From Octopus vulgaris (taxonomy: Eukaryota), in contig OX597825.1 of the NCBI GenBank assembly GCA_951406725.2, positions 40,424,001 through 40,488,000 of the forward strand: a stretch of 64,000 nt of DNA, read 5' to 3'. Of this stretch, positions 13,701 to 62,130 are shown piece after piece. Positions within the stretch are counted from its first letter, which is position 1, and every line of letters starts with the position of its first letter. The notes below the pieces were generated by a model that did no database searches, was not told where the DNA came from, and worked only from the letters and a program-made list of their open reading frames with translations. A program made the translations under genes and the position numbers.

Positions 13701-14971
13701 TCAGGACATCCCTTAAGTTCTGTCCGATCTTGCCTTATTTAAAATTGAATGTAATTTAATAGTATTTTAGTATGTCTAATGGAATTTAAAATTATTTTTA
13801 TGCATTTGTATACATTTGAACTCATTAAATATTTATTTTACAGAATAATAGAACTATAATTTATTTGATTAAAACCCTTTCTAACATGAAAGTATCCAAA
13901 GGGCATTTGAGGCACATAATGCTTTATGAGTACGAAAAAGGAAACACCTGCAGCCGAAGCGACTCGAAACATAAACTTAGTTTATGGGACAGAATGCTTG
14001 AATGAAAGAACTTGCAGAAGATGATTTGCAAAATTCAGAAGGGCTGATTTTAGCTTTGAAGATGAAGATCGAACAGGACATCAAGTTGAGTTTGATGATA
14101 AACTCCTTCAGGCATTACGTGAAGAAAATCCTGCATTATCAGTTGAAGAATTGGCAATAAAGCTTAGTTCAAACCATACAACTGTTCATCGCCATCTTCA
14201 AGAACATGGAAACTGGATACCTCGTGAATTGTCCAAAAGTAACCACAAATCCCGAGTTGACATCTGCTCTTCCCTCCATTCTCGCGAACTCATTTTATCC
14301 TTTTTGGATAGACCGGTGACTGGTGACGAAAAATGGATCTTCTATCGAAATGTTAAACTTCGTAAACAGTGGCTTGGTAAAAGGGATAAAGCTCAACCAC
14401 AACCGATAAAGGAATTTCGTGAGAAAAAGTTTCTTCTCCCTGTCTGGTCGGCTTGCAAAGGAGTAATTCACTTTGAATTGTTACCACCTAATGCAACAAT
14501 AAATGCTCAATACTACTGCCAGCAATTAGAGCGTTTGAACCAGGCTTTGAAGAAAAAAGACCCGCTTTAGGGAATAGAAAAGGAGAACGTTTCATCAGGA
14601 CAATGAGCGACCCCATGCTGTAAAGATCAGATCACAGAAGATCGGTGAGCTTCGTTGGAAACAAATTCCTCATACACCTTATTCTCCCGACCTTGTTCCT
14701 TCAGACTATCATTTGTTTCGATAGTTTACAGAATCATTTCGGGGACATAATTTTCGCAAATCAGGAGGAGGTCGAAACTGATATTTCAGAGATTTTCGTT
14801 TTGAAACCAAAAGAGTTTTACGCTGATGGGATTAAAAAGCTTGTAAACATATCGAAGGAATTCATAGATAATCAGAGAAAGTAAATTGATGATAAAATTT
14901 CAGTTAGCTATAACATTTGATTACTGCTTTTCTTTATTCAAAATTCGGACAGTAATTATGGGATGACGTGA
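13701..14971 (+). mobile_element. Mariner (DD34D) transposon, full length, pseudogenised
   Basis: Imperfect 27-bp TIRs (tcaggacatcccttaagttctgtccga / tcggacagtaattatgggatgacgtga) flanked by TA; motifs WIPREL, VTGDEKW, HQDN, PYSPDL.PSDYHLF broken by frameshifts and stops. Confidence 0.92.
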
Positions 14972-24828: not shown

Positions 24829-32020
<7,192 letters not shown>

Positions 32021-36624: not shown

Positions 36625-38260
36625 GACGGATATTTGTCTTCATCTTGTTTGTTGTTAACATAACGTTTCGGCTGATAAACCCTCCAGCCTTTATCAGGTG
36701 TCTTCGGAGAAAATATCGAACCTGGGGTCTCATTCCTAAGGTATTTTTCGATGTGATATTCTTCTTCTTATAATTATTATTCTGATCACTACCTGGAATC
36801 GAATTTAGAATATTGGGGTTAGTGGCACGCGCTCTTAACCACTGCACCATATGCCTGTGTACAATTATGGAGTGAATTTTAGGTCTTATAAATCTAATAT
36901 TCTCTTATCCTTCCATAATACCGGTTCCAATATGCTATTCATATCTGCATTCAGTCTTCTTAGGAAGTTGTGTCTTAGCATATGTGCTGCTTCTTTTAGT
37001 TTTCGTATTCTTCAGTGGTGTTCTCTGTCTAATATTTTAAATTCATCCCACAGGGGGAGTTGTTCTCCATTTTTCCATACATGATCAGCTATACCCGATT
37101 TATCAATATCTCCTCATGTCACAGCTTTGCGATGTTCGTCTACTCTTATTTCGAAGAGGCGGCATGTTTCGCCTTTGTATAACCTGCCACAGCTGCATGG
37201 GATGGAGTACACGCAGTTTTTGTTCATATTCTTTCTATTGGTGGTTTTACTCAAAGGAGATATTTGCGAAGTGTTGTATTTCTCTTGAATACTCACCAGG
37301 TGTCATATGGGCCGCATATATTTTGTATCTTTTCGGAGAGGCCTTTCACATAAGGTAGATAGACTGTGGGTATTTTATTAGCTTCATCCTCTCTTTTCTT
37401 CATAATTGGAGTGAATAGTATGTTTTGTGGGGTAGTTTTTGCTTAATAGATTGTTATTTAACACTATTCTTGTAGATATATATCAATGCCCATACTGAAG
37501 TAGGTAGTTTTTACACAGGAGGTCAACTTTTCCATCAAGTTTCTTATTGGTATAATAGTGCATCCTTTTAGATGGGTGTCTGTCACTAGTTTTTCTTGAA
37601 ACGCCGCTAGTGCTTGAACAGTTGGGACTTTGGTGAACAGATTTATCACATCTAGACTCACCATCTTGGATGCAATGAGGGTATCCTTGATTGATTCTGT
37701 GAAGTGGGTGGAATTCTTTACGGTTCAGTGGATGACATGCTGAACCCCTACAGCTCACTATAATTATTAATGGAATACCATTCTTGTGAATCTTAGGGAG
37801 GATGGTCATGTATGGTAGCTTACTGTAGTGTTGAGTCACTTGTCTGTACTTCGTTGCTGTAAAGTGATCCCTATTCTTGACAAAGGTCTGTGACAACTTT
37901 TTCTCTGTTTTGAGAGTTGGGTCTTCCTTTACTTTGCTCTAGCTACCATCACTTATAAGACTTGCCAGTTTTTCCGACTATTCAGAATTGTTCATCACCA
38001 CTGTAGCATTTCCATTGTCCACTGGAGGTGTTATGATGTAGTCTTTTGATAGCGAACTTTTCTTCCTTAGTGATGTTTGATTTGGGAAGTTTCACTTTTC
38101 TAGTACCTGTCTAACATTCCACCTTAGTTCATCTCCCTGAGCTTTTTGATATCAAGTATAGAAAGCGCTTGATGGTTGTCGCAAAATTGAGACCTTTGTT
38201 TAGTACTGCTTCTTCAGAGCTTCCTAGATGTCTGCTACTTACATTAATTACTGCTTTCAC
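36625..38260 (-). mobile_element. Decayed Penelope-like element (RT, GIY-YIG, pseudo-LTR with tRNA-like segment and decayed HHR)
   Basis: LPKIHKNGIPL, VSLDVINLFTKVP..TTYF (PLE RT); VYSIPCSCGRLYKGET..RVDEH (GIY-YIG); gacac-CTGATAA-aggctg..cagcc-GAAA-cgtt at 36655-36702. Confidence 0.85.
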
Positions 38261-39634: not shown

Positions 39635-40569
39635 TTAAAGATCATAATCTCTCCGCTCCATGTCGTAGTCCACCATCCAACCGGGAGAGCGCCTTGCGCG
39701 TCGAGATCTTCTCAAGCTGGGCACCTCGTTCTCTCCCTCTCCAGAATCGTCGTCCGTCGAAGCGACAATCCTGCGAAGGTCCAAGACGTGTTGCGGCATT
39801 CCATCCACGGATACGTTGTTTCTGGAATTGACTGCCGTCACCGTTCCTCTGCTCCGTTGAGCCGTACAGCGCGCCTTTGGTGGCTTAACCCAGACTTCCT
39901 CCCCTATTTTCACGCAAACGGGTCCCTTCTCTTCCTCGTGACCCTCCGGCGCTTTGCACGGGTGCCTCCATTCATATTTGAACACAGCTCTCTGCGGCGC
40001 AGATTCCTCAGCTTGTCCGGATCGGGGAGACAAGTTGTACCTAAAAACTGCTTCAAGCGGCGAAATGTGCCCTCTTTCCGATATGGCCTTGACTGTCCGA
40101 TGGTGCCTCTCCACGATCCCGTTACCGCTCGGCCTATACGCTGCTCTGAACAAGCGACGCATATTCCAGCGATCAAGCATAACGCTCAATGCTTCGGAAC
40201 GAAACGCCGCCCCGTTGTCCATTAGTATTTCTTCCACGGGACCTCTCTCTAAAAATATCCCGTTCAGGATCTGCGCGACCTCGTCAGCAATGTTCGTTCT
40301 CAACTCCCTCCAAATGGCCAGCCGGCCTGGCCCGCAGTCGACCATGCAGAGGTACATTCGCTGACGGTAGTGTGTCACATCCACAGCTAGCCTTTTCCAG
40401 TTCTGCTCCACGGAAAGGCTTCCCTATTCATGCCCACACGGAGCAGGGTCGATGGACTGACACCTGTTGCAGCTCCCGACCACCTTCCAGATGATTCTCC
40501 TAGTGACGTCAGCATCAATTTTCTTCGCCAGATACAGGGTCCTGTCCACACCCAGGTGATGCATAGCAT
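39635..40569 (-). pseudogene. Integrase (HHCC plus DDE), frameshifted
   Basis: HAMHHLG..CNRC; LAVDVTH, ILMDNG, GNGIVERHHRTVK. Confidence 0.9.
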
Positions 40570-41884
40570 GCAGTTTCTTCAGTTCAGAGTCATCCAACCG
40601 ACACGCCGCAGCTATCCCTTTCCGTGCCTCCTCCGGTTCTTCCAACCACGCTCTTTTCACCCTGGTCAGTACGTCCGCTCTGTTTTTCTCCGAAGGCACG
40701 AAAACCACATTCAGATTCAGTCCGAACTCGGCGATCAATTCACCTAGAACTCCTAGACAGCGCTTCACTAACATCTCCGCAGCACCTTCAGTCCGCATTC
40801 TCCTTTCACCGGTGATCACCGATCCTACCCAGCCAAGCACAGTGGCCGAATCCGTCCGGATTTCAATTGTGCGCAGCCCCCATTTCAAGGCCAAGTTCAT
40901 CCCTTTCAGCACCGCGTCTAATTCGGCGACATTCATGTGGTTGAAATCATCTGCATTCCGAAGCCAGGCCGCGTCCTCCACCGCAGAACCTTCGATTGCC
41001 ACCACAACCCCTATCGCTATACTGCTAGCATCACACCAGACGGTCCCGCATTCCGTCTTGGGCACGTACCAGTTCCCCCTAACCGGGTCTTCCGCTCTCA
41101 TCCTCTCTAGGATTTCCTGCATCATCGCCACCGTCCCTTCTCCCACCTTGTCGCCCCAACTCTCCCCCTCTGCTCGTCTCTTGGTGTAACTACACGCCGT
41201 GCGCAGCCATCCAGCGATCGGGTAGGGACCCACCAACATCCCAGACACCGAGAACAGCTCTCTCCTGCTGACGCTGGAACTCAGCTCTGGGATTTTATTC
41301 CCTCTCCGGAACACCAATTCACCCAAATCTATCTCTTCGCAGCTTCAACCCCAGCACGGCTGCCCCTTCCATCGACTCCGGTGGCTTAGCAATCAGTCCG
41401 AACTTCTGCAGATGTCTGACTACCTCGTTGGCTGGCACTACAGTTTCGTCCACCAAAATGTCGTCAATGTAGGGGCTGGTGACCTTTCTAATCTTGCCGT
41501 CTTTCCCTAGTACGGACCTAAGCACTGCCGCCATGATCTTCGGAGTGGAATTCAGCCCGAAACTCAGCCTGGTTAAACAGTACGTCCGGCCCTTGTACCG
41601 CACCAGCTGATATCGCCACAGTTTGTCGCTCACATGGAGTTGCAAGTATGCCGATTTCAAGTCGGCATATATTTCATCGCTGTTGACTGTCTCTACGCAC
41701 GTAATGTCTCGCCACAAACGTCCGTCACCTCACCTCCCGTGTGACACGATATATGCTTGTTTAGCTCCCTGAAGTCCAGAACCGGTCTGACCTTTCCCTT
41801 CGTAGGCTGCACCACCGCCATCAGGGGTAGCACTCCACCCGCTACCTCCTCCTTCAAGGGACAAGGACCCCTTCCTCGATCCAT
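40570..41884 (-). pseudogene. Reverse transcriptase plus RNase H, frameshifted
   Basis: VRPVLDFRELN, DLKSAYLQ, LSFGL, YIDD; WCDASS, NVAEL, TDS, NRADVLTR. Confidence 0.9.
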
Positions 41885-42145
41885 CTCTCCACCTCGTCTT
41901 CAAACTCCACCCTGGTGTGGCCTTTCAGGGTATGCTGGTAACAGCTCACCCTGGGGCTCGTCCTTCCATCGCCACTCTATCGTCCACCGCTGACTATCGA
42001 ACGCCGACTGAAAGTCTTTGTCCTCGAGGGTGTAAGCGGCGCAGTCCCTCGTGGGGCTCTGCTCTCTCTGGCGATCCTGACTCGCAGTACACGACGCCCC
42101 CACGCTTCCGAACGTGACCTCATTTCCCACAACACTGGACGCCAC

Positions 42146-42430
42146 CGAGGCAGTTGATGGCGTCCAATCCCCATCACCACATCAACTCCATCTATCACGC
42201 GTTCGGCCACAATTGCCCGCAGCCTTAGCGTCGCGCCGCGCACCACTATCTCTACCTTGCTGCTGCCTCTGCAACTGATTTCGATGCCAACGACCGCCCG
42301 GACGCTACTCACCCCGTTCCATTCCTTCGTCAACCTCGAATTCACAAGGGTGGTCGTACAGCCCGTATCCACGAGGGCCTTGAACGTCTTCCCCTCGGCC
42401 TCCACGTTAATCAATGGCAGCGTCTTCAAT
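42146..42430 (-). pseudogene. Retropepsin-type aspartic protease
   Basis: KALVDTGCTTTLV..DVVMG. Confidence 0.85.
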
Positions 42431-42479
42431 AGCGTCTCTACTCGTTTGTGGGGAAATTTCAAGAGGTAGCAACTTCCCC

Positions 42480-43196
42480 GTGGTCGTTTCCCTGGTCGCA
42501 ATCACGGGCAATGTGCCCTGTCTATCTGCATCGATAGCAAACGGGTCCCGGTTGCGTAAAATCCCGCGCCATGTGCGGTGCCTGTCATCTAAAACACCGT
42601 CCTGAGAACGGCCGCTCTCGTTGCATGGTAAGCTTCTGAATGTCTTTCTCCGGTCGTCGTCCGTCTTTATGCGCCTCCGTCACCGCCATCGCCTTCCGCC
42701 CAGAGTGTCGTGTCAACACGCGGGACTGAGCCACAAGTTCGCTCAGCGCCATCTTTTTAATTCCGGGCAATCGTTGTAGGTGAATCCCTACATCGTCGGG
42801 GAACCCATTCACAATCACCAGCCGGGCTGCTCTTTCCAGCCTTTCTCCCGCAAACCCAGCCAGAGTCGCTAACCTTCTAACTTCTGCTGCGTAGTCATCC
42901 ACTTGTCCTCCTGTCCATCTGATCGCACCTAGCTTAGCAAAAGCTGTGTATTCACATTCTGTGTAGGCATCTCGCAAGCGTCGCCCTATGTTCTCCTCGC
43001 TCAGCCGTTCCTCCTCGTCCATCTCAAGGTATAGCTTTAAGGCGCTCCCTTTTAAATACAGCGCCATAAGACATGCCACATCGCTTATACCTTGCAGTCT
43101 TGCCACCAGCCTGATTTTGCGAATCCAGGCCACTACATCGCCTTCACCATTAAAGGGTCGGACGATGTCGCTGGCGATCCTAATTTTCGCAGACAT
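42480..43196 (-). pseudogene. gag with zinc knuckles, premature stop
   Basis: ATG at 43196 (MSAKIR..PFNGEGDVVAW); GRCFR* followed by CYRCRQTGHIARDC. Confidence 0.8.
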
Positions 43197-43219
43197 AGTG
43201 TCGACGAATCGTGTTGAAA

Positions 43220-43525
43220 TGTAAATATTTAAGAATCGCCGAAATAGCTTGTAGTGTGTGCGCGATATGAATATAAAGGCACCTACCTTCTCTTCGCCCT
43301 GATGGAGACCCTTCAGTGGTAACGGATCCTTCGACACAGCCCCGACCCGAACACTAATGAAAGCAGCTGCTGCACCCAACCTAGCGACGTCTTCCTACGT
43401 CCTCACACCTCGATGACCCTCGTTCGAAAGGCCGAAATCGCCGGTCTGCGCGCGCCTGCCGGCTGCCCCTTTCCATTAAGCCCCAACTTCCGGTCAACTC
43501 ACCCAGCTTCTGACGTCATCCCACA
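43220..43525 (-). repeat. 5' LTR
   Basis: Matches the 3' LTR over 43350-43525; inner end inferred at TTACA (43220). Confidence 0.7.
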
Positions 43526-48316: not shown

Positions 48317-49559
48317 CAGGGTGTCCCCAAAAAATGTATACACACTTTAGCAGCTGGTAACTCAATTGATGTTTTTTCTGTCCAGATGAAACCTATAGGA
48401 TTTAATGATGGCAGTCAGATTAAGCTTTGAACAAAGAAAATTCATTCTAAAATGATACTGGAAGTGTGAAAATGCAGTTGAAGTGCAAAAACAGTTGGGG
48501 AGGGACTTTCAAACAGATCCACCAATGCAACTCCCTATCACTTGAATTAGAGATAAGTTTGAAGCTGATGGAACTGTCCAGAATGTCAACGATAAGCATT
48601 CCAGAAGACCCCGAACATCAACAACCCCAACAAAGCAAGGAGTACTGGAAATGAATCACCAAAGTCTAAGAAAATCTGTGCGGCAAAGCGAGTCATGAGG
48701 TAGGTATTCCAAAATCATCTGTCCAATGCATTTTGAAGCATTGTCAATGGAAAAGTTACATTCCAAGATTAGTCCATGCTATTAATGATGATGATCCAGA
48801 CGAAAGAGTGCAGCATTGCGAGTGGTACTTGAAACGATGTGTAGAAGTTGCACACTTTCCAACAAAGATTGTGTGGAGTGATGAAGCCACATTCAAATTA
48901 AATGGTTCAATTAACTGCCACAATTGTACCTACTGGGGTCCTGAGAATCTGCATGTTATGGTGAAACACCATGTTAATTTGATATTTGTGTGGTGTGGTT
49001 TATCATCAACAGGATTAATTGGACCATTATTTTGTTATGCTACTGTGACTGGTCCCGTTTACTTGAACTTGTTGCAACAGTCTGTTATGCCAAGCATTAG
49101 AGAAGACTTTGAAGATGAGGAGTTTTATTTTCAGCAAGATTGGGCACCCCCACACTATCATTGCTATGTTAGATCCTTCCTTGATGAGATCTTGCTAAAC
49201 AGGTGGATTGGATGAAGAGGTATGGTTGAATTCACCAGACCTCACACCACTAGGCTTTTTTATGGGGATACCTTAAAGACAAATTCTAAGCTATGAAACA
49301 TACAAGTCGCTGATTTGAGAGCAGCCATTGGACGCGAGTGCACACAAATACCAAACAAATTCCTTTGTGATATTTGTGATTCCATTCCTTTGCGTTGTCA
49401 GCAGTGCCTGGACAAGACCGGACATCAGTTTGAAAACAGGCATTGACAAAACAATAAAATAATGTCTGTAGATTCTATTAAATTTTGAAAATGAAGTGTC
49501 TTTTAATAAACAACTTTACAATTGTTTAAAGTGTGCATACATTCTTTTGGGACACCCTG
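48317..49559 (+). mobile_element. Tc1/mariner-superfamily transposon (DD37D/DUF4817-like), full length, pseudogenised
   Basis: TIRs cagggtgtccccaaaaaatgtatacacacttta / taaagtgtgcatacattcttttgggacaccctg with TA on both sides; [34 protein letters not shown]. Confidence 0.92.
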
Positions 49560-49584: not shown

Positions 49585-49653
<69 letters not shown>

Positions 49654-50211
49654 TGCAGCGTGGAAGGTGTTTATAAGCCATTTAAGAAACACACAAAAGC
49701 CGTTCGATTCACTCCAACATTTAAGTTTAATTTGTCAAAATATTTTCGTCGCTAAAATCCGCGACCTGTTCACTGACAAAGTCCGTGCTGCATCTAAGAA
49801 AGTAACAGTTAGTTCGTCATATATATGTACGTATGTATGTGTGTATGTATGCATACATGTGTGTATGTATGTACGTATGCATGTACGCACATACGCCTGT
49901 GTATGCATGTATGTATGTATGTATGTATGTATGTATGTATGTATGTATGTATGTATGTATGTATATATGTATGTGTGTGTATAAGCACGCACATACACTC
50001 TATAAAACATAAAGTTATAAACCTGTAGCGATGGATGGATGTAGAGTGACCGCTCATCACAACGCTATCAAATTTCAACTCCCTACGGCCGAGGCTAGAA
50101 AGTGAATTTATGACGCTTGCTCACAAGAACTATACCCTAAAATCTATTATCAGATTTTTATCTCTATATCACAGAACTAATGTTTTACTATTGTTCGTAT
50201 GTATGTATGTA

Positions 50212-50570
50212 TGTGCGTAAATTGTAAAACCAAGGGCACTGCATACCAGATTAAGTGCCAGGAGGGAGCTTGCGCGGCTAACCCGGAGTCATACATAGGT
50301 GAGACCTCTAGAAGCATCAATGATAGGTTCAAAGAACACATGGACAACTACATTGAAAGGAAGCCAAACTCCATCTTCTACCAACATGCTGTAGACTGCC
50401 ACAAAGGATCCTTAGGGGAGCTTAAGTTGAACATCCTATCTACACATCCCACCGATGCAATGTTGAGACAGGTCACAGAAGCTGTTTGTATACAAGAATA
50501 CAAACCTACTCTCAACCGAAAGTCCGAATGGAATAACATCCAGATCCCATTCAGAAGGACTATTCTATAA
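50212..50570 (+). pseudogene. GIY-YIG endonuclease domain of a PLE (N-truncated, open frame)
   Basis: AYQIKC..YIGETSRSINDRFKEH..QH..H..RQVTEAVCI..PTLNRKSEW. Confidence 0.9.
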
Positions 50571-51538
50571 CCACCCCTCTCTCTCTCTCCCTTTCACCTG
50601 TAGTCCTTACATACAGGTTGCAATGCGTATATGCAGTTATATACAACGGTATGAGCAGACGTTGTTTGATACGAACAGTTGCACCTAGGCGTTGTATCCA
50701 TTCACGGTTAGACGATGATGAGAGGAACAAACACACACCCACACACATATATATATATGTGTGTGCGTCTATACAAACATATATGTAAATATGTATACAA
50801 CCTTCAGCAAAGTAACAGTCATGTACACAACTTGGACGGACACATGCCAGTACACGGACATACGTTCACATACACATACACATGTACACACTCTCACGGA
50901 CACATCTGCCCATTCTCCTAGACACTCACATACATACGTAGCACATGAATACAAACATACATACATACCTACGTATGGGCATACACACGTACATACGCAC
51001 GTACATGTACACACACACATATATGGGCACATGCATACGAGCGCGTATACATACATACGCACATGCGTACGTATGTACATACATACATACATACATACAT
51101 ACATACATACATACATACGCACATACATACATACATACATACGAACAATAGTAAAACATTAGTTCTGTGATATAGAGATAAAAATCTGATAATAGATTTT
51201 AGGGTATAGTTCTTGTGAGCAAGCGTCATAAATTCACTTTCTAGCCTCGGCCGTAGGGAGTTGAAATTTGATAGCTTTGTGATGAGTGGTCACTCTACAT
51301 CCATCCATCGCTACAGGTTTATAACTTTATGTTTTATAGAGTGTATGTGCGTGCTTATACACACACATACATACATACATACATACATACATACATACAT
51401 ACATACATACATGCATACACAGGCGTATGTGCGTACATGCATACGTACATTCATACACACATGTATGCATACATACACACATACATATGTACATATATAT
51501 GACGAACTAACTGTTACTTTCTTAGATGCAGCACAGAC

Positions 51539-51588
51539 TTTGTCAGTGAACAGGTCGCGGATTTTAGCGACGAAAATATTTTGACAAA
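51539..51588 (+). ncRNA. Variant minimal hammerhead with a G3:C8 core (identical copy on - at 49731-49780)
   Basis: Helix I TTTGTCA/TGACAAA, core GTGAACA, extra G, helix II GTCGC/GCGAC, GAAA, palindromic AAAATATTTT helix III. Confidence 0.65.
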
Positions 51589-51733
51589 TTAAACTTAAAT
51601 GTTGGAGTGAATCGAACGGCTTTTGTGTGTTTCTTAAATGGCTTATAAACACCTTCCACGCTGCAATTGTTTTCGTTTCAGCACACGATCTCAGATCAAA
51701 TTACTTGCTATGCGAGTACATCTCCGTAATATA

Positions 51734-51806
<73 letters not shown>

Positions 51807-51808
<2 letters not shown>

Positions 51809-52930
51809 TGTCCCTAGCCATATTCAGATGGCTTTAGTCCCTTATGTTATCGAGCAGTTACTGTCTATATCCCTTTTAGAGAATTATTATTGCTTTCGAA
51901 CAGATTTTCGAAATCAGCAAATGTATTTTGCTTGAAAATCTATATAAGAAAATCCTGCAGAGTGAGAATTCGTCGAGGAAGCGGAGGCCTACCACACGCC
52001 GATGATAGGCAATACACCTTGAAACCATGGTCCGTGTGTGGTTTCCGCTTCATCGGGGAATTACCTCCCTTTGCAGGTTAAGGGCACCGTGACGGTGTCG
52101 AGCCTTTCTGGTGACGTCGATGTTCGCCTGGGGCTAAATGCAACAGTAACACCCCCACCACCCTGCCCTGTCCCTAGCCATATTCAGATGGCTTTAGTCC
52201 CTTATGTTATCGAGCAGTTACTGTCTATATCCCTTTTAGAGAATTATTATTGCTTTCGAACACATTTTCGAAATCAGCAAATGTATTTTGCTTGAAAATC
52301 TATATAAGAAAATCCTGCAGAGTGAGAATTCGTCGAGGAAGCGGAGGCCTACCACACGCCGATGATAGGCAATACACCTTGAAACCATGGTCCGTGTGTG
52401 GTTTCCGCTTCATAGGGGAATTACCTCCCTTTGCAGGTTAAGGGCACCGTGACGGTGTCGAGCCTTTCTGGTGACGTCGATGTTCGCCTGGGGCTAAATG
52501 CAACAGTAACACCCCCACCACCCTGCCCTGTCCCTAGCCATATTCAGATGGCTTTAGTCCCTTATGTTATCGAGCAGTTACTGTCTATATCCCTTTTAGA
52601 GAATTATTATTGCTTTCGAACAGATTTTCGAAATCAGCAAATGTATTTTGCTTGAAAATCTATATAAGAAAATCCTGCAGAGTGAGAATTCGTCGAGGAA
52701 GCGGAGGCCTACCACACGCCGATGATAGGCAATACACCTTGAAACCATGGTCCGTGTGTGGTTTCCGCTTCATCGGGGAATTACCTCCCTTTGCAGGTTA
52801 AGGGCACCGTGACGGTGTCGAGCCTTTCTGGTGACGTCGATGTTCGCCTGGGGCTAAATGCAACAGTAACACCCCCACCACCCTGCCCTGTCCCTAGCCA
52901 TATTCAGATGGCTTTAGTCCCTTATGTTAT
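51807..52930 (+). mobile_element. Tandem array of a 360-bp hammerhead-containing unit (3 copies plus 44 bp), putative non-LTR retrozyme, inside (TA)n
   Basis: Exact 360-bp period; only two substitutions seen (52263, 52414); (TA)n on both flanks; one HHR per unit. Confidence 0.9.
51978..52051 (+). ncRNA. Type I hammerhead ribozyme, U4C core (copies at 52338-52411 and 52698-52771)
   Basis: Helix I CACACG/CGTGTG extended by GAAGCGGA/TCCGCTTC; CCGATGA; helix II AGG/CCT; GAAA-C-CATG-G-TC; predicted cleavage after 52032. Confidence 0.82.
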
Positions 52931-52989
52931 ATATATATATATATATGAATATAGTTGGATACATATATACATACATACAAGCACACTCA

Positions 52990-59485: not shown

Positions 59486-62130
<2,645 letters not shown>

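Follow-up and report, generated by a model that had tools for sequence, protein, structure and literature searches.

How does a short repeat that encodes no protein come to stand as a tandem array inside a (TA)n run of the Octopus vulgaris genome, and what machinery placed it there? The question is raised by positions 51807-52930 of the window, a 64,000-nucleotide stretch of contig OX597825.1 to which all coordinates below refer. The array is one insertion of a young, dispersed and recently mobile family without open reading frames (ORFs). We consider it likely that the family is a young, protein-free non-LTR retrozyme with two fixed ends, copied into TA by the borrowed reverse transcriptase (RT)-endonuclease of a Penelope-like element (PLE), and probably from a 360-nt circle.

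Architecture of the 360-bp array

TRF reports a period of 360 bp with 3.1 copies and 99% matches, and TA runs lie on either side of the array. This bears out the sequence-only reading, which described 3.1 near-identical units inside (TA)n. The first and third copies are identical, and the second differs from them at two sites. The unit has a GC content of 46.9%; its longest ATG-initiated ORF spans 50 codons, and no protein-coding ORF is seen. The features of the array and its surroundings are the following.

49650-51728, + strand: young host Neptune-like PLE, head-to-head in TA, with the GIY-YIG region at 50211-50567 and ends about 60 nt apart
51729-51806: left-flank (TA)39 target run, identical with the TA run at the 3' end of the young Neptune-like PLE insertion
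51807-52930, + strand: single-arm insertion of 3.12 units; the 5' end is unit position 1, without microhomology, and the 3' end is site A
51807-52166, 52167-52526, 52527-52886 and 52887-52930, + strand: unit boundaries
51954-52077, + strand: long imperfect rod with the hammerhead at its tip (fold z -5.4), repeated at +360 and +720, with a compensatory C-G/U-A change at the base
51993-52038, + strand: type I hammerhead, copy 1, predicted cut after C 52032
52353-52398, + strand: hammerhead copy 2, predicted cut after 52392
52713-52758, + strand: hammerhead copy 3, predicted cut after 52752
52083-52099, + strand: hairpin GGCACCG-UGA-CGGUGUC, with an A-U/G-C compensatory pair among subfamilies
52144-52254, + strand: complete start-site module, one internal copy, comprising a hairpin, a closing helix and sites A and B
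52144-52151 with 52216-52223, + strand: closing helix of the start-site module
52176-52193, + strand: GCCA..UGGC hairpin of the internal module
after 52210 and after 52254, + strand: start sites A and B of the internal module, with a 44-nt 'tail' from A to B
52896-52930, + strand: terminal GCCA..UGGC hairpin and the site A used by the window insertion, junction GTTAT/ATAT
52931-52946: right-flank (TA)n, inside which any target-site duplication is indistinguishable

The 360-bp unit as a whole folds at z -5.3. A hammerhead at the tip of a long rod had been proposed, and the rod at 51954-52077 agrees with it; the three further small hairpins that were said to fill the unit are all present. The 3' junction of the array reads ..GTTAT/ATAT, so that this end merges with the TA target as first described, to which we add that it is one of two fixed ends.

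The hammerhead and its predicted dimeric fold

Helix I of copy 1 consists of CACACG (51993-51998) and CGUGUG (52033-52038). The core is CCGAUGA (51999-52005; C3 C4 G5 A6 U7 G8 A9), and helix II has 3 bp (AGG/CCU) with a U.U pair at 10.1/11.1, then GAAA. Helix III, ACCAUGGU (52024-52031), is a perfect 8-nt palindrome, with C17 at 52032. The U4C hammerhead written out in the sequence-only reading is thereby confirmed letter by letter, and none of 5000 shuffled units fitted a simple type I descriptor that demands a perfect 6-bp helix I. The Rfam check proposed there failed: over the window no hammerhead was found at the gathering score, and at E <= 10 only TA-run artefacts appeared. We nevertheless count the motif as real, on account of the descriptor and of the covariation described below. 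CCGAUGA is also present on the minus strand, where a hammerhead candidate was dropped, being without helix II.

The ACCAUGGU duplex has a predicted energy of -11.2 kcal/mol. In a two-unit transcript the predicted minimum-energy fold contains an 8-bp helix III that joins both hammerheads, and in the monomer the hammerhead fold is predicted to lie 7.4 kcal/mol above the minimum. Even in the dimer, the core GCC may still mispair with the helix II GGC. Among the distinct helix III strings in a scan of the fetched loci, 16 of 25 are self-complementary, including ACUCGAGU and ACUGCAGU of sister families; the palindrome is kept in ACCUAGGU, ACCUGGGU (with G.U), ACUCGAGU and ACUGCAGU. The short palindromic helix III had been read as the mark of a dimer-type hammerhead, and both the modelled two-unit fold and the retention of the palindrome via double changes speak for this. 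A dimer working mode is supported in silico. Dimer-cleaving PLE hammerheads have reportedly been described by Lunse et al., and U4C variants may already be among them.

Weighing against efficient cleavage, the core carries two changes, U4C and U10.1.U11.1, of a kind that weakens hammerheads. U4C is much weaker in vitro yet sufficient in a viroid, U3-A8 hammerheads are reported to be active, and U.U is given as the best tolerated mismatch (PMC3088659). Also on the opposing side, of nine Xenopus retrozyme dimers only one cut in vitro (10.64898/2026.07.22.740005).

A young family with an ordered core history

Searching the 2.8-Gb genome with the unit gave 237 matches at ~99%, from 40 of 739 candidate places. 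Pattern counts genome-wide amount to 1,640 hammerhead units, 1220 with C3 and 420 with U3. This is the copy survey that had been suggested as a check, and the core fold is kept in it with covariation; together with the absence of an ORF, these results back the assignment to a retrozyme-like family.

Across 24 subfamily representatives, 97.3% of cells are paired. Helix I changes from C-G to U-A among subfamilies, the core 3-8 pair is U-A in 9 representatives, U.G in 11 and C-G in 4, and the centre of helix III is U-A in 13, A-U in 8 and U.G in 2, with one mismatch. Pairs with a two-sided change number 5, which is not above shuffles (141 of 500), a test that is only a guide because the sequences compared are related. 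Since the changes in the core pair and the palindrome are compensatory, the catalytic fold seems to be maintained, and the sequences suggest that it is under selection in this family.

Rooted at its midpoint only, the subfamily tree is ladder-like: UUGAUAA comes first, followed by UUGAUGA and UUGACGA, and the CC clade (support 99/99) stands at the end. Within-locus divergence is 0.0016 for CCGAUGA (52 loci) and 0.0126 for UUGAUAA (8 loci), which makes CCGAUGA the youngest. As read from these sequences, the core path in the 360-bp lineage appears to be U3-A8, then U3.G8, then C3-G8 with U4C. The ladder and the within-locus divergence both indicate that U4C is derived; it belongs to the most amplified subfamily (1220 units).

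The CUGANGA core has 0 copies in the family, against 1220 C3 and 420 U3 copies. Absence of CU among 1220 units is unsurprising, since the units are very young, and the notion of a forbidden canonical core is weakened by sister families that carry CUGACGA and CUGAAGA. We reject the explanation of U4C as decay: it is fixed in the youngest clade, and two older sister families carry it in 29 of their 43 hits (50 hits minus 5 inversion-joint artefacts and 2 unrelated ones).

Two fixed ends and head-to-head arms

The outer ends of the insertions are internal to the unit and lack poly(A); they lie at one of two unit positions, 44 (site A, where the array at 51807-52930 ends) or about 88 (site B). Genome-wide, exact TA junctions number 544 at A and 779 at B, and the controls gave 0. 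The pairing count takes in every listed exact end (64 A and 100 B) from C1 and from the initial 109 Mb of C2. In this set 42 pairs of neighbours lie within 12 kb, 41 of them head-to-head and one on the same strand, and every head-to-head pair joins one A to one B (41/41). Exact matching leaves 23 A and 59 B ends unpaired; 40 were fetched, and most of these had a slightly variant partner end.

The 104 fetched loci are not a random sample, having been taken as best hits, hammerhead-bearing loci or unpaired ends, and this choice inflates the arm lengths given below. Inverted insertions account for 74 loci (66 A+B, one A+A, one B+B and 6 with an odd end); the remainder are 28 single arms and 2 loci too short to align. 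TA is present on both flanks of 60 A+B loci, and the A+A and B+B loci each have a non-TA flank. Flush inversion joints show microhomology of at least 3 nt in 13 of 37 cases, against about 5% by chance, a count that BLAST extension can inflate.

PLE insertions are described as having an inverted 5'-truncated arm, a 30-40-bp tail on one end and microsatellite targets (Craig et al., 10.1101/2021.04.23.441226). In work with a purified PLE protein, both strands of AT-rich DNA were cut and extended, and reverse transcription began at two neighbouring sites within the RNA, the tail being the stretch between them (Frangieh et al. 2024, PMC11167929). The 360-bp insertions likewise combine an inverted 5'-truncated arm with a short tail on one end (41/41; 66/74), and they are biased towards microsatellite or AT-rich targets (544 + 779 TA junctions). 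By this analogy, the one-of-each layout of the two ends appears to be the Penelope-like 'tail' and two-start footprint. Our literature searches found no earlier description of head-to-head retrozyme insertions with two fixed ends, and the word 'ribozyme' is absent from the available text of an octopus repeat annotation (PMC13282606).

Some inversion joints are more complex. Four of them (L074:1875-1988, L105:2158-2422, L064 and L199) hold 110-260 nt of unrelated sequence or short rearranged pieces of the unit, possibly captured by template switching. At L123, L124, L134 and L115 the joint lies inside the rod and creates a new CCGAUGA..GAAACCAUGGUC string, in which a minus-strand copy of the stem is fused to the 3' half of the hammerhead.

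The template recorded by the arms

From the hammerhead cut site, A follows after 178 nt and B after 222 nt. In the A+B loci, a non-random sample, the arms extend past the cut in 49 of 66 cases for A and in 46 of 66 for B, and the longest reaches 5304 nt. Only 5 of 176 5' ends fall within 3 nt of the cut, where 3.4 are expected. Because most arms are longer than the distance to the cut and 5' ends are not enriched there, cleaved linear monomers were ruled out as the main template.

The two arms of a locus are closely alike: their difference averages 0.4% (62 inverted loci), against 4.4% between loci. Over 46 young loci, diagnostic variants agree between the arms 44 times and disagree twice, and 12 locus-private variants, 8 of them in one locus, are present on both arms. 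In a 23-unit locus, 5 variants are common to all units and 2 occur as singletons; the 45 largest loci show no mixed variant pattern that turns up again in another locus. The arms fit repeated passes round one unit-length molecule, that is, rolling-circle copying of a circle. They do not always come from one molecule, in view of the 2 discordant sites and of two chimeras described below. Rolling passes round a circle have been proposed for retrozymes (PMC7229834).

The same PLE machinery and start sites could instead act on an uncut linear multimer transcribed from a uniform array, with a weak or idle hammerhead and no circle, a reading that we regard as unlikely. Long arms do not in themselves need a circle, since hammerhead mutants of an anole PLE still insert, normally so in vitro, where uncut RNA is the main substrate (PMC11167929). 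The core that is never textbook (0 CUGANGA copies against 1220 C3 and 420 U3) and the lack of a 5'-end peak at the cut site lean the same way. However, uniform units, new haplotypes carried in all units and the lack of any recurring mixed pattern in the 45 largest loci imply a unit-length bottleneck, and compensatory changes of the core pair and palindrome imply that the catalytic fold is maintained.

Later expansion of short insertions at the DNA level, by unequal crossover or slippage, has been proposed as a route to retrozyme arrays (10.64898/2026.07.22.740005), and the direct repeat contained in an insertion slightly longer than one unit might serve as a seed for unequal crossover. For this family we find such expansion very improbable: the two inverted arms each comprise several units, are very young (within-locus divergence 0.16%) and have private variants in common, the unit length is the same at every locus, and 2 singletons are found in arrays as long as 23 units.

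Unit contigs in four sequencing runs measure 390 nt (the unit plus 30) in three and 358 nt in one; they are not used as evidence because a circle and a tandem array would look alike. The unique flank beside the array is uncovered in these four runs, which is uninformative on expression. One run, labelled as another organism, holds a variant with 8 changes, one of them at free position 7 (single contig). Among sequence records, 20 rows contain the stretch, and none is listed as RNA beyond 'RNA?' guesses or an unstated type.

Penelope-like elements as candidate mobilizers

The Neptune-like PLE at 49650-51728 is a neighbor of the array, outside the unit, and a candidate mobilizer. The type I scan listed no hammerhead of its own for it; its 3' UTR carries and spreads (ACAT)n microsatellites. 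Two young autonomous families in the genome insert into TA, one encoding an 899-aa PLE and the other the Neptune-like protein with a CX3CXXC linker, and both follow the one-of-each end rule, at 6/6 loci each with both ends matched. Profiles of the 360-bp unit gave no match to the 3' UTRs of these two families, in a genome with thousands more PLE candidates, and no pLTR homologue was found here. As neither autonomous family shares 3' sequence with the unit, it is only the class of the mobilizer that we infer. The unit, having no ORF, lacks the RT and GIY-YIG ORF of an autonomous PLE. A locus with a Neptune-like end 10 nt from a 360-bp arm (L073) was rejected as a chimera, with ends off the rule and a right flank that is not TA. 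Pfam gave no match on the full proteins of the 899-aa and Neptune-like families.

Twin priming is known from the L1 literature, with microhomology at the joints; in its L1 form only the 3' end is fixed, and the second start falls at random. A LINE as mobilizer (e.g. R2-, Hero- or RTE-type), with the inversions made by L1-style twin priming, receives hardly any credence from us, for while the microhomology of at least 3 nt at 13/37 flush joints against about 5% resembles twin priming, both outer ends are fixed, unit-internal and without poly(A), matching the layout of the genome's PLEs.

Other mobile elements are present in the window. A broken PLE with a C-terminal endonuclease at 59650-62010 (- strand) ends in (TA)n and has its own type I hammerhead, with core CUGAAGA and palindrome ACAUAUGU; its relatives elsewhere in the genome are young and intact, of 899-908 aa, with ends about 154 nt apart. 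The ORF translations at 39635-43394 (- strand) point to a frameshifted Ty3/gypsy-like remnant with gag-, protease-, RT- and integrase-like stretches. By eye, the translations at 14025-14570, 48670-49215 and 37483-37938 resemble Mariner/Tc1-like transposase remnants and a further PLE-like RT fragment; Pfam gave no match on the PLE-like fragment at 37483-37938.

The start-site module and its sister families

Two older families have the same core and palindrome. Outside the core, homology is found for one of them (E 1.7e-4) and is not significant for the other. Both likewise end at two sites, and a GCCA..UGGC hairpin located 14-17 nt before site A is common to all three families. A hairpin-beside-TA pattern, written so that the 360-bp family falls outside it, gave 1579 forward and 5875 reverse (overlapping) matches, compared with 8 controls; among the matches listed, 41 distinct sites lie in the first 41 Mb of C1. 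Of the 29 hairpin loci that were read, most proved to be sister repeats without an ORF; hammerheads and head-to-head arms were seen in several, and a PLE ORF adjoined the hairpin at none of the 29.

In an alignment of 15 sequences, the hairpin and site A are enclosed by an 8-bp closing helix, three pairs of which have changed on both sides. Several sisters have added hairpins that are predicted, in single-sequence folds, to form a four-way junction. The module is the best candidate for the signal read by a PLE protein. Judging from these sequences, the 360-bp family appears to be one branch of a large radiation of sister retrozymes. The distance from the hammerhead cut to the far end is 222, 236 and 219 nt in three families, a series too thin to name a partner.

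Sister retrozyme families on C1 (L317-L336) have cores CUGACGA, CUGAAGA, CCGAUGA and UUGAUAA and differing palindromes, all with the GCCA..UGGC module.

Relation to the 485-bp family

The window holds a second array, of 485-bp units, to which the 360-bp family had been called unrelated. With respect to the 485-bp unit this stands: the best blastn hit has E 4.1 (and spans the chosen unit boundary), and nhmmer profiles find no similarity. The family is not isolated, being a member of the radiation of sister retrozymes. A shared motif before site A (a GCC/GGC hairpin and GTyCCTTA) was noted by eye only and is not significant by profile.

Two of the 104 loci are chimeras of the 360-bp unit with 485-like arms. 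In one (L084), a 360-bp arm starting at site A is followed by the arm of a 485-like subfamily, which runs to its own far site, with TA on either side; in the other (L075), the sequence opens as a 485-like arm, changes over to the 360-bp unit and stops at site A. These loci show that two RNAs can enter one insertion event. The suggestion that both families use the same pathway is strengthened by the two chimeric insertions and by the like two-end layout.

The 485-bp array (24944-32020) is itself inserted head to head; its two ends differ from each other, look fixed and are separated by about 105 nt. The core of its hammerhead is the canonical CUGAAGA, the helix II region measures 68 nt and helix III is a palindrome of 12 nt, a layout nearer to that of the 899-aa PLE family than to that of the 360-bp unit.

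A possible route of insertion

For a retrozyme copied by a borrowed PLE enzyme, the following steps can be proposed. The 360-bp arrays would be transcribed, and adjacent hammerheads are predicted to pair via ACCAUGGU, cut after GUC and release unit-length RNA. A lone hammerhead, as in a circle, is predicted to fold poorly and so to stay uncut. A host ligase would close the circle, as in the literature on other retrozymes. A PLE protein would then bind the structured module and cut (TA)n on both strands. Synthesis of cDNA from one DNA end would presumably begin at site A, and from the other at site B, which lies 44 nt beyond; the ends themselves are observed. Each cDNA would run back round the template, for part of a unit to about 15 units as the arm lengths record, and the two cDNAs would be joined head to head, often via short microhomology. 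If only one end were extended, a single arm would result, as in the window insertion.

A more specific version is tentative, and we think it somewhat doubtful as a whole. Here a PLE dimer would grip one circle by the multi-branch module, prime at two sites and roll in both arms; the module would be the signal of the whole radiation, and the hammerhead would be kept deliberately weak so that dimers cut and circles survive. The weakness meant is that of U3-A8, U3.G8 and then U4C, always with U.U.

The retrozyme field, in the literature available to us, holds as open which enzyme spreads these elements, whether the circle is the template and what the tail and hammerhead do, and answers have been proposed there. 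What the 360-bp family contributes is a substrate of 360 nt whose start sites are mapped, a candidate binding module with covariation, and dated hammerhead variants. Given these features and the intact young PLE ORFs of the same genome, each of the questions becomes a direct in vitro test.

Comparison with known systems

By every feature testable in the sequence the 360-bp family is a non-LTR retrozyme, and it probably works like a non-autonomous PLE. Metazoan non-LTR retrozymes, as presented in the available text of PMC7229834 and 10.64898/2026.07.22.740005, have ORF-less units of 150-450 bp (350-390 in mussel) with GC below 50%, one type I hammerhead per unit, a short palindromic helix III and a highly paired predicted circle. 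The 360-bp unit is alike in all of these, having no LTR, PBS or PPT, no ORF, ends internal to the unit and a GC content of 46.9%; the U.U at the base of helix II also occurs in axolotl HHR_Amex2. The same sources propose PLEs as the mobilizer, via co-occurrence and pLTR homology. In contrast to the retrozymes described there, the octopus family has head-to-head arms, two fixed ends and a shared start-site module, and its core is C3C4 or U3U4, never CU. Expression and circles have been shown for described retrozymes, whereas the 360-bp family is known from genomic sequence.

Endonuclease PLEs (10.1101/2021.04.23.441226, PMC3846280, PMC11167929, in the portions available) share with the 360-bp family the AT-rich target, the head-to-head arms and the extension of one end. 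Their two internal RT starts, extension of both strands and dimer-type hammerhead are counted as further likenesses. The 360-bp family differs from them in its lack of an ORF, its many-unit arms and a tail of 44 nt instead of 30-40; the PLE papers, as far as their available text goes, place the tail 'usually' or 'optionally' on one end, whereas here one-of-each was counted, at 41/41. Chlamydomonas MRC1-type non-autonomous PLEs share 3' sequence with an autonomous family and are mostly without a hammerhead, according to the available part of 10.1101/2021.04.23.441226. Unlike them, the 360-bp family has a hammerhead, and no autonomous partner was found in the two PLE families compared.

Elements of this kind are known. 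What the literature compared does not contain is the strict one-of-each rule, the single haplotype common to both arms, the start-site module shared with sister families, and the history of the core. Among natural hammerhead variants, U4C, U3-A8 covariation (also in Schistosoma PLEs) and U10.1-U11.1 have each been described (PMC3088659 and PMC4209133, as available). The 360-bp family unites all of them in a single lineage, where their order of appearance can be dated and the U4C form has been amplified most. Here the passage of a ribozyme core pair via a wobble intermediate is documented in nature, of which there are few records.
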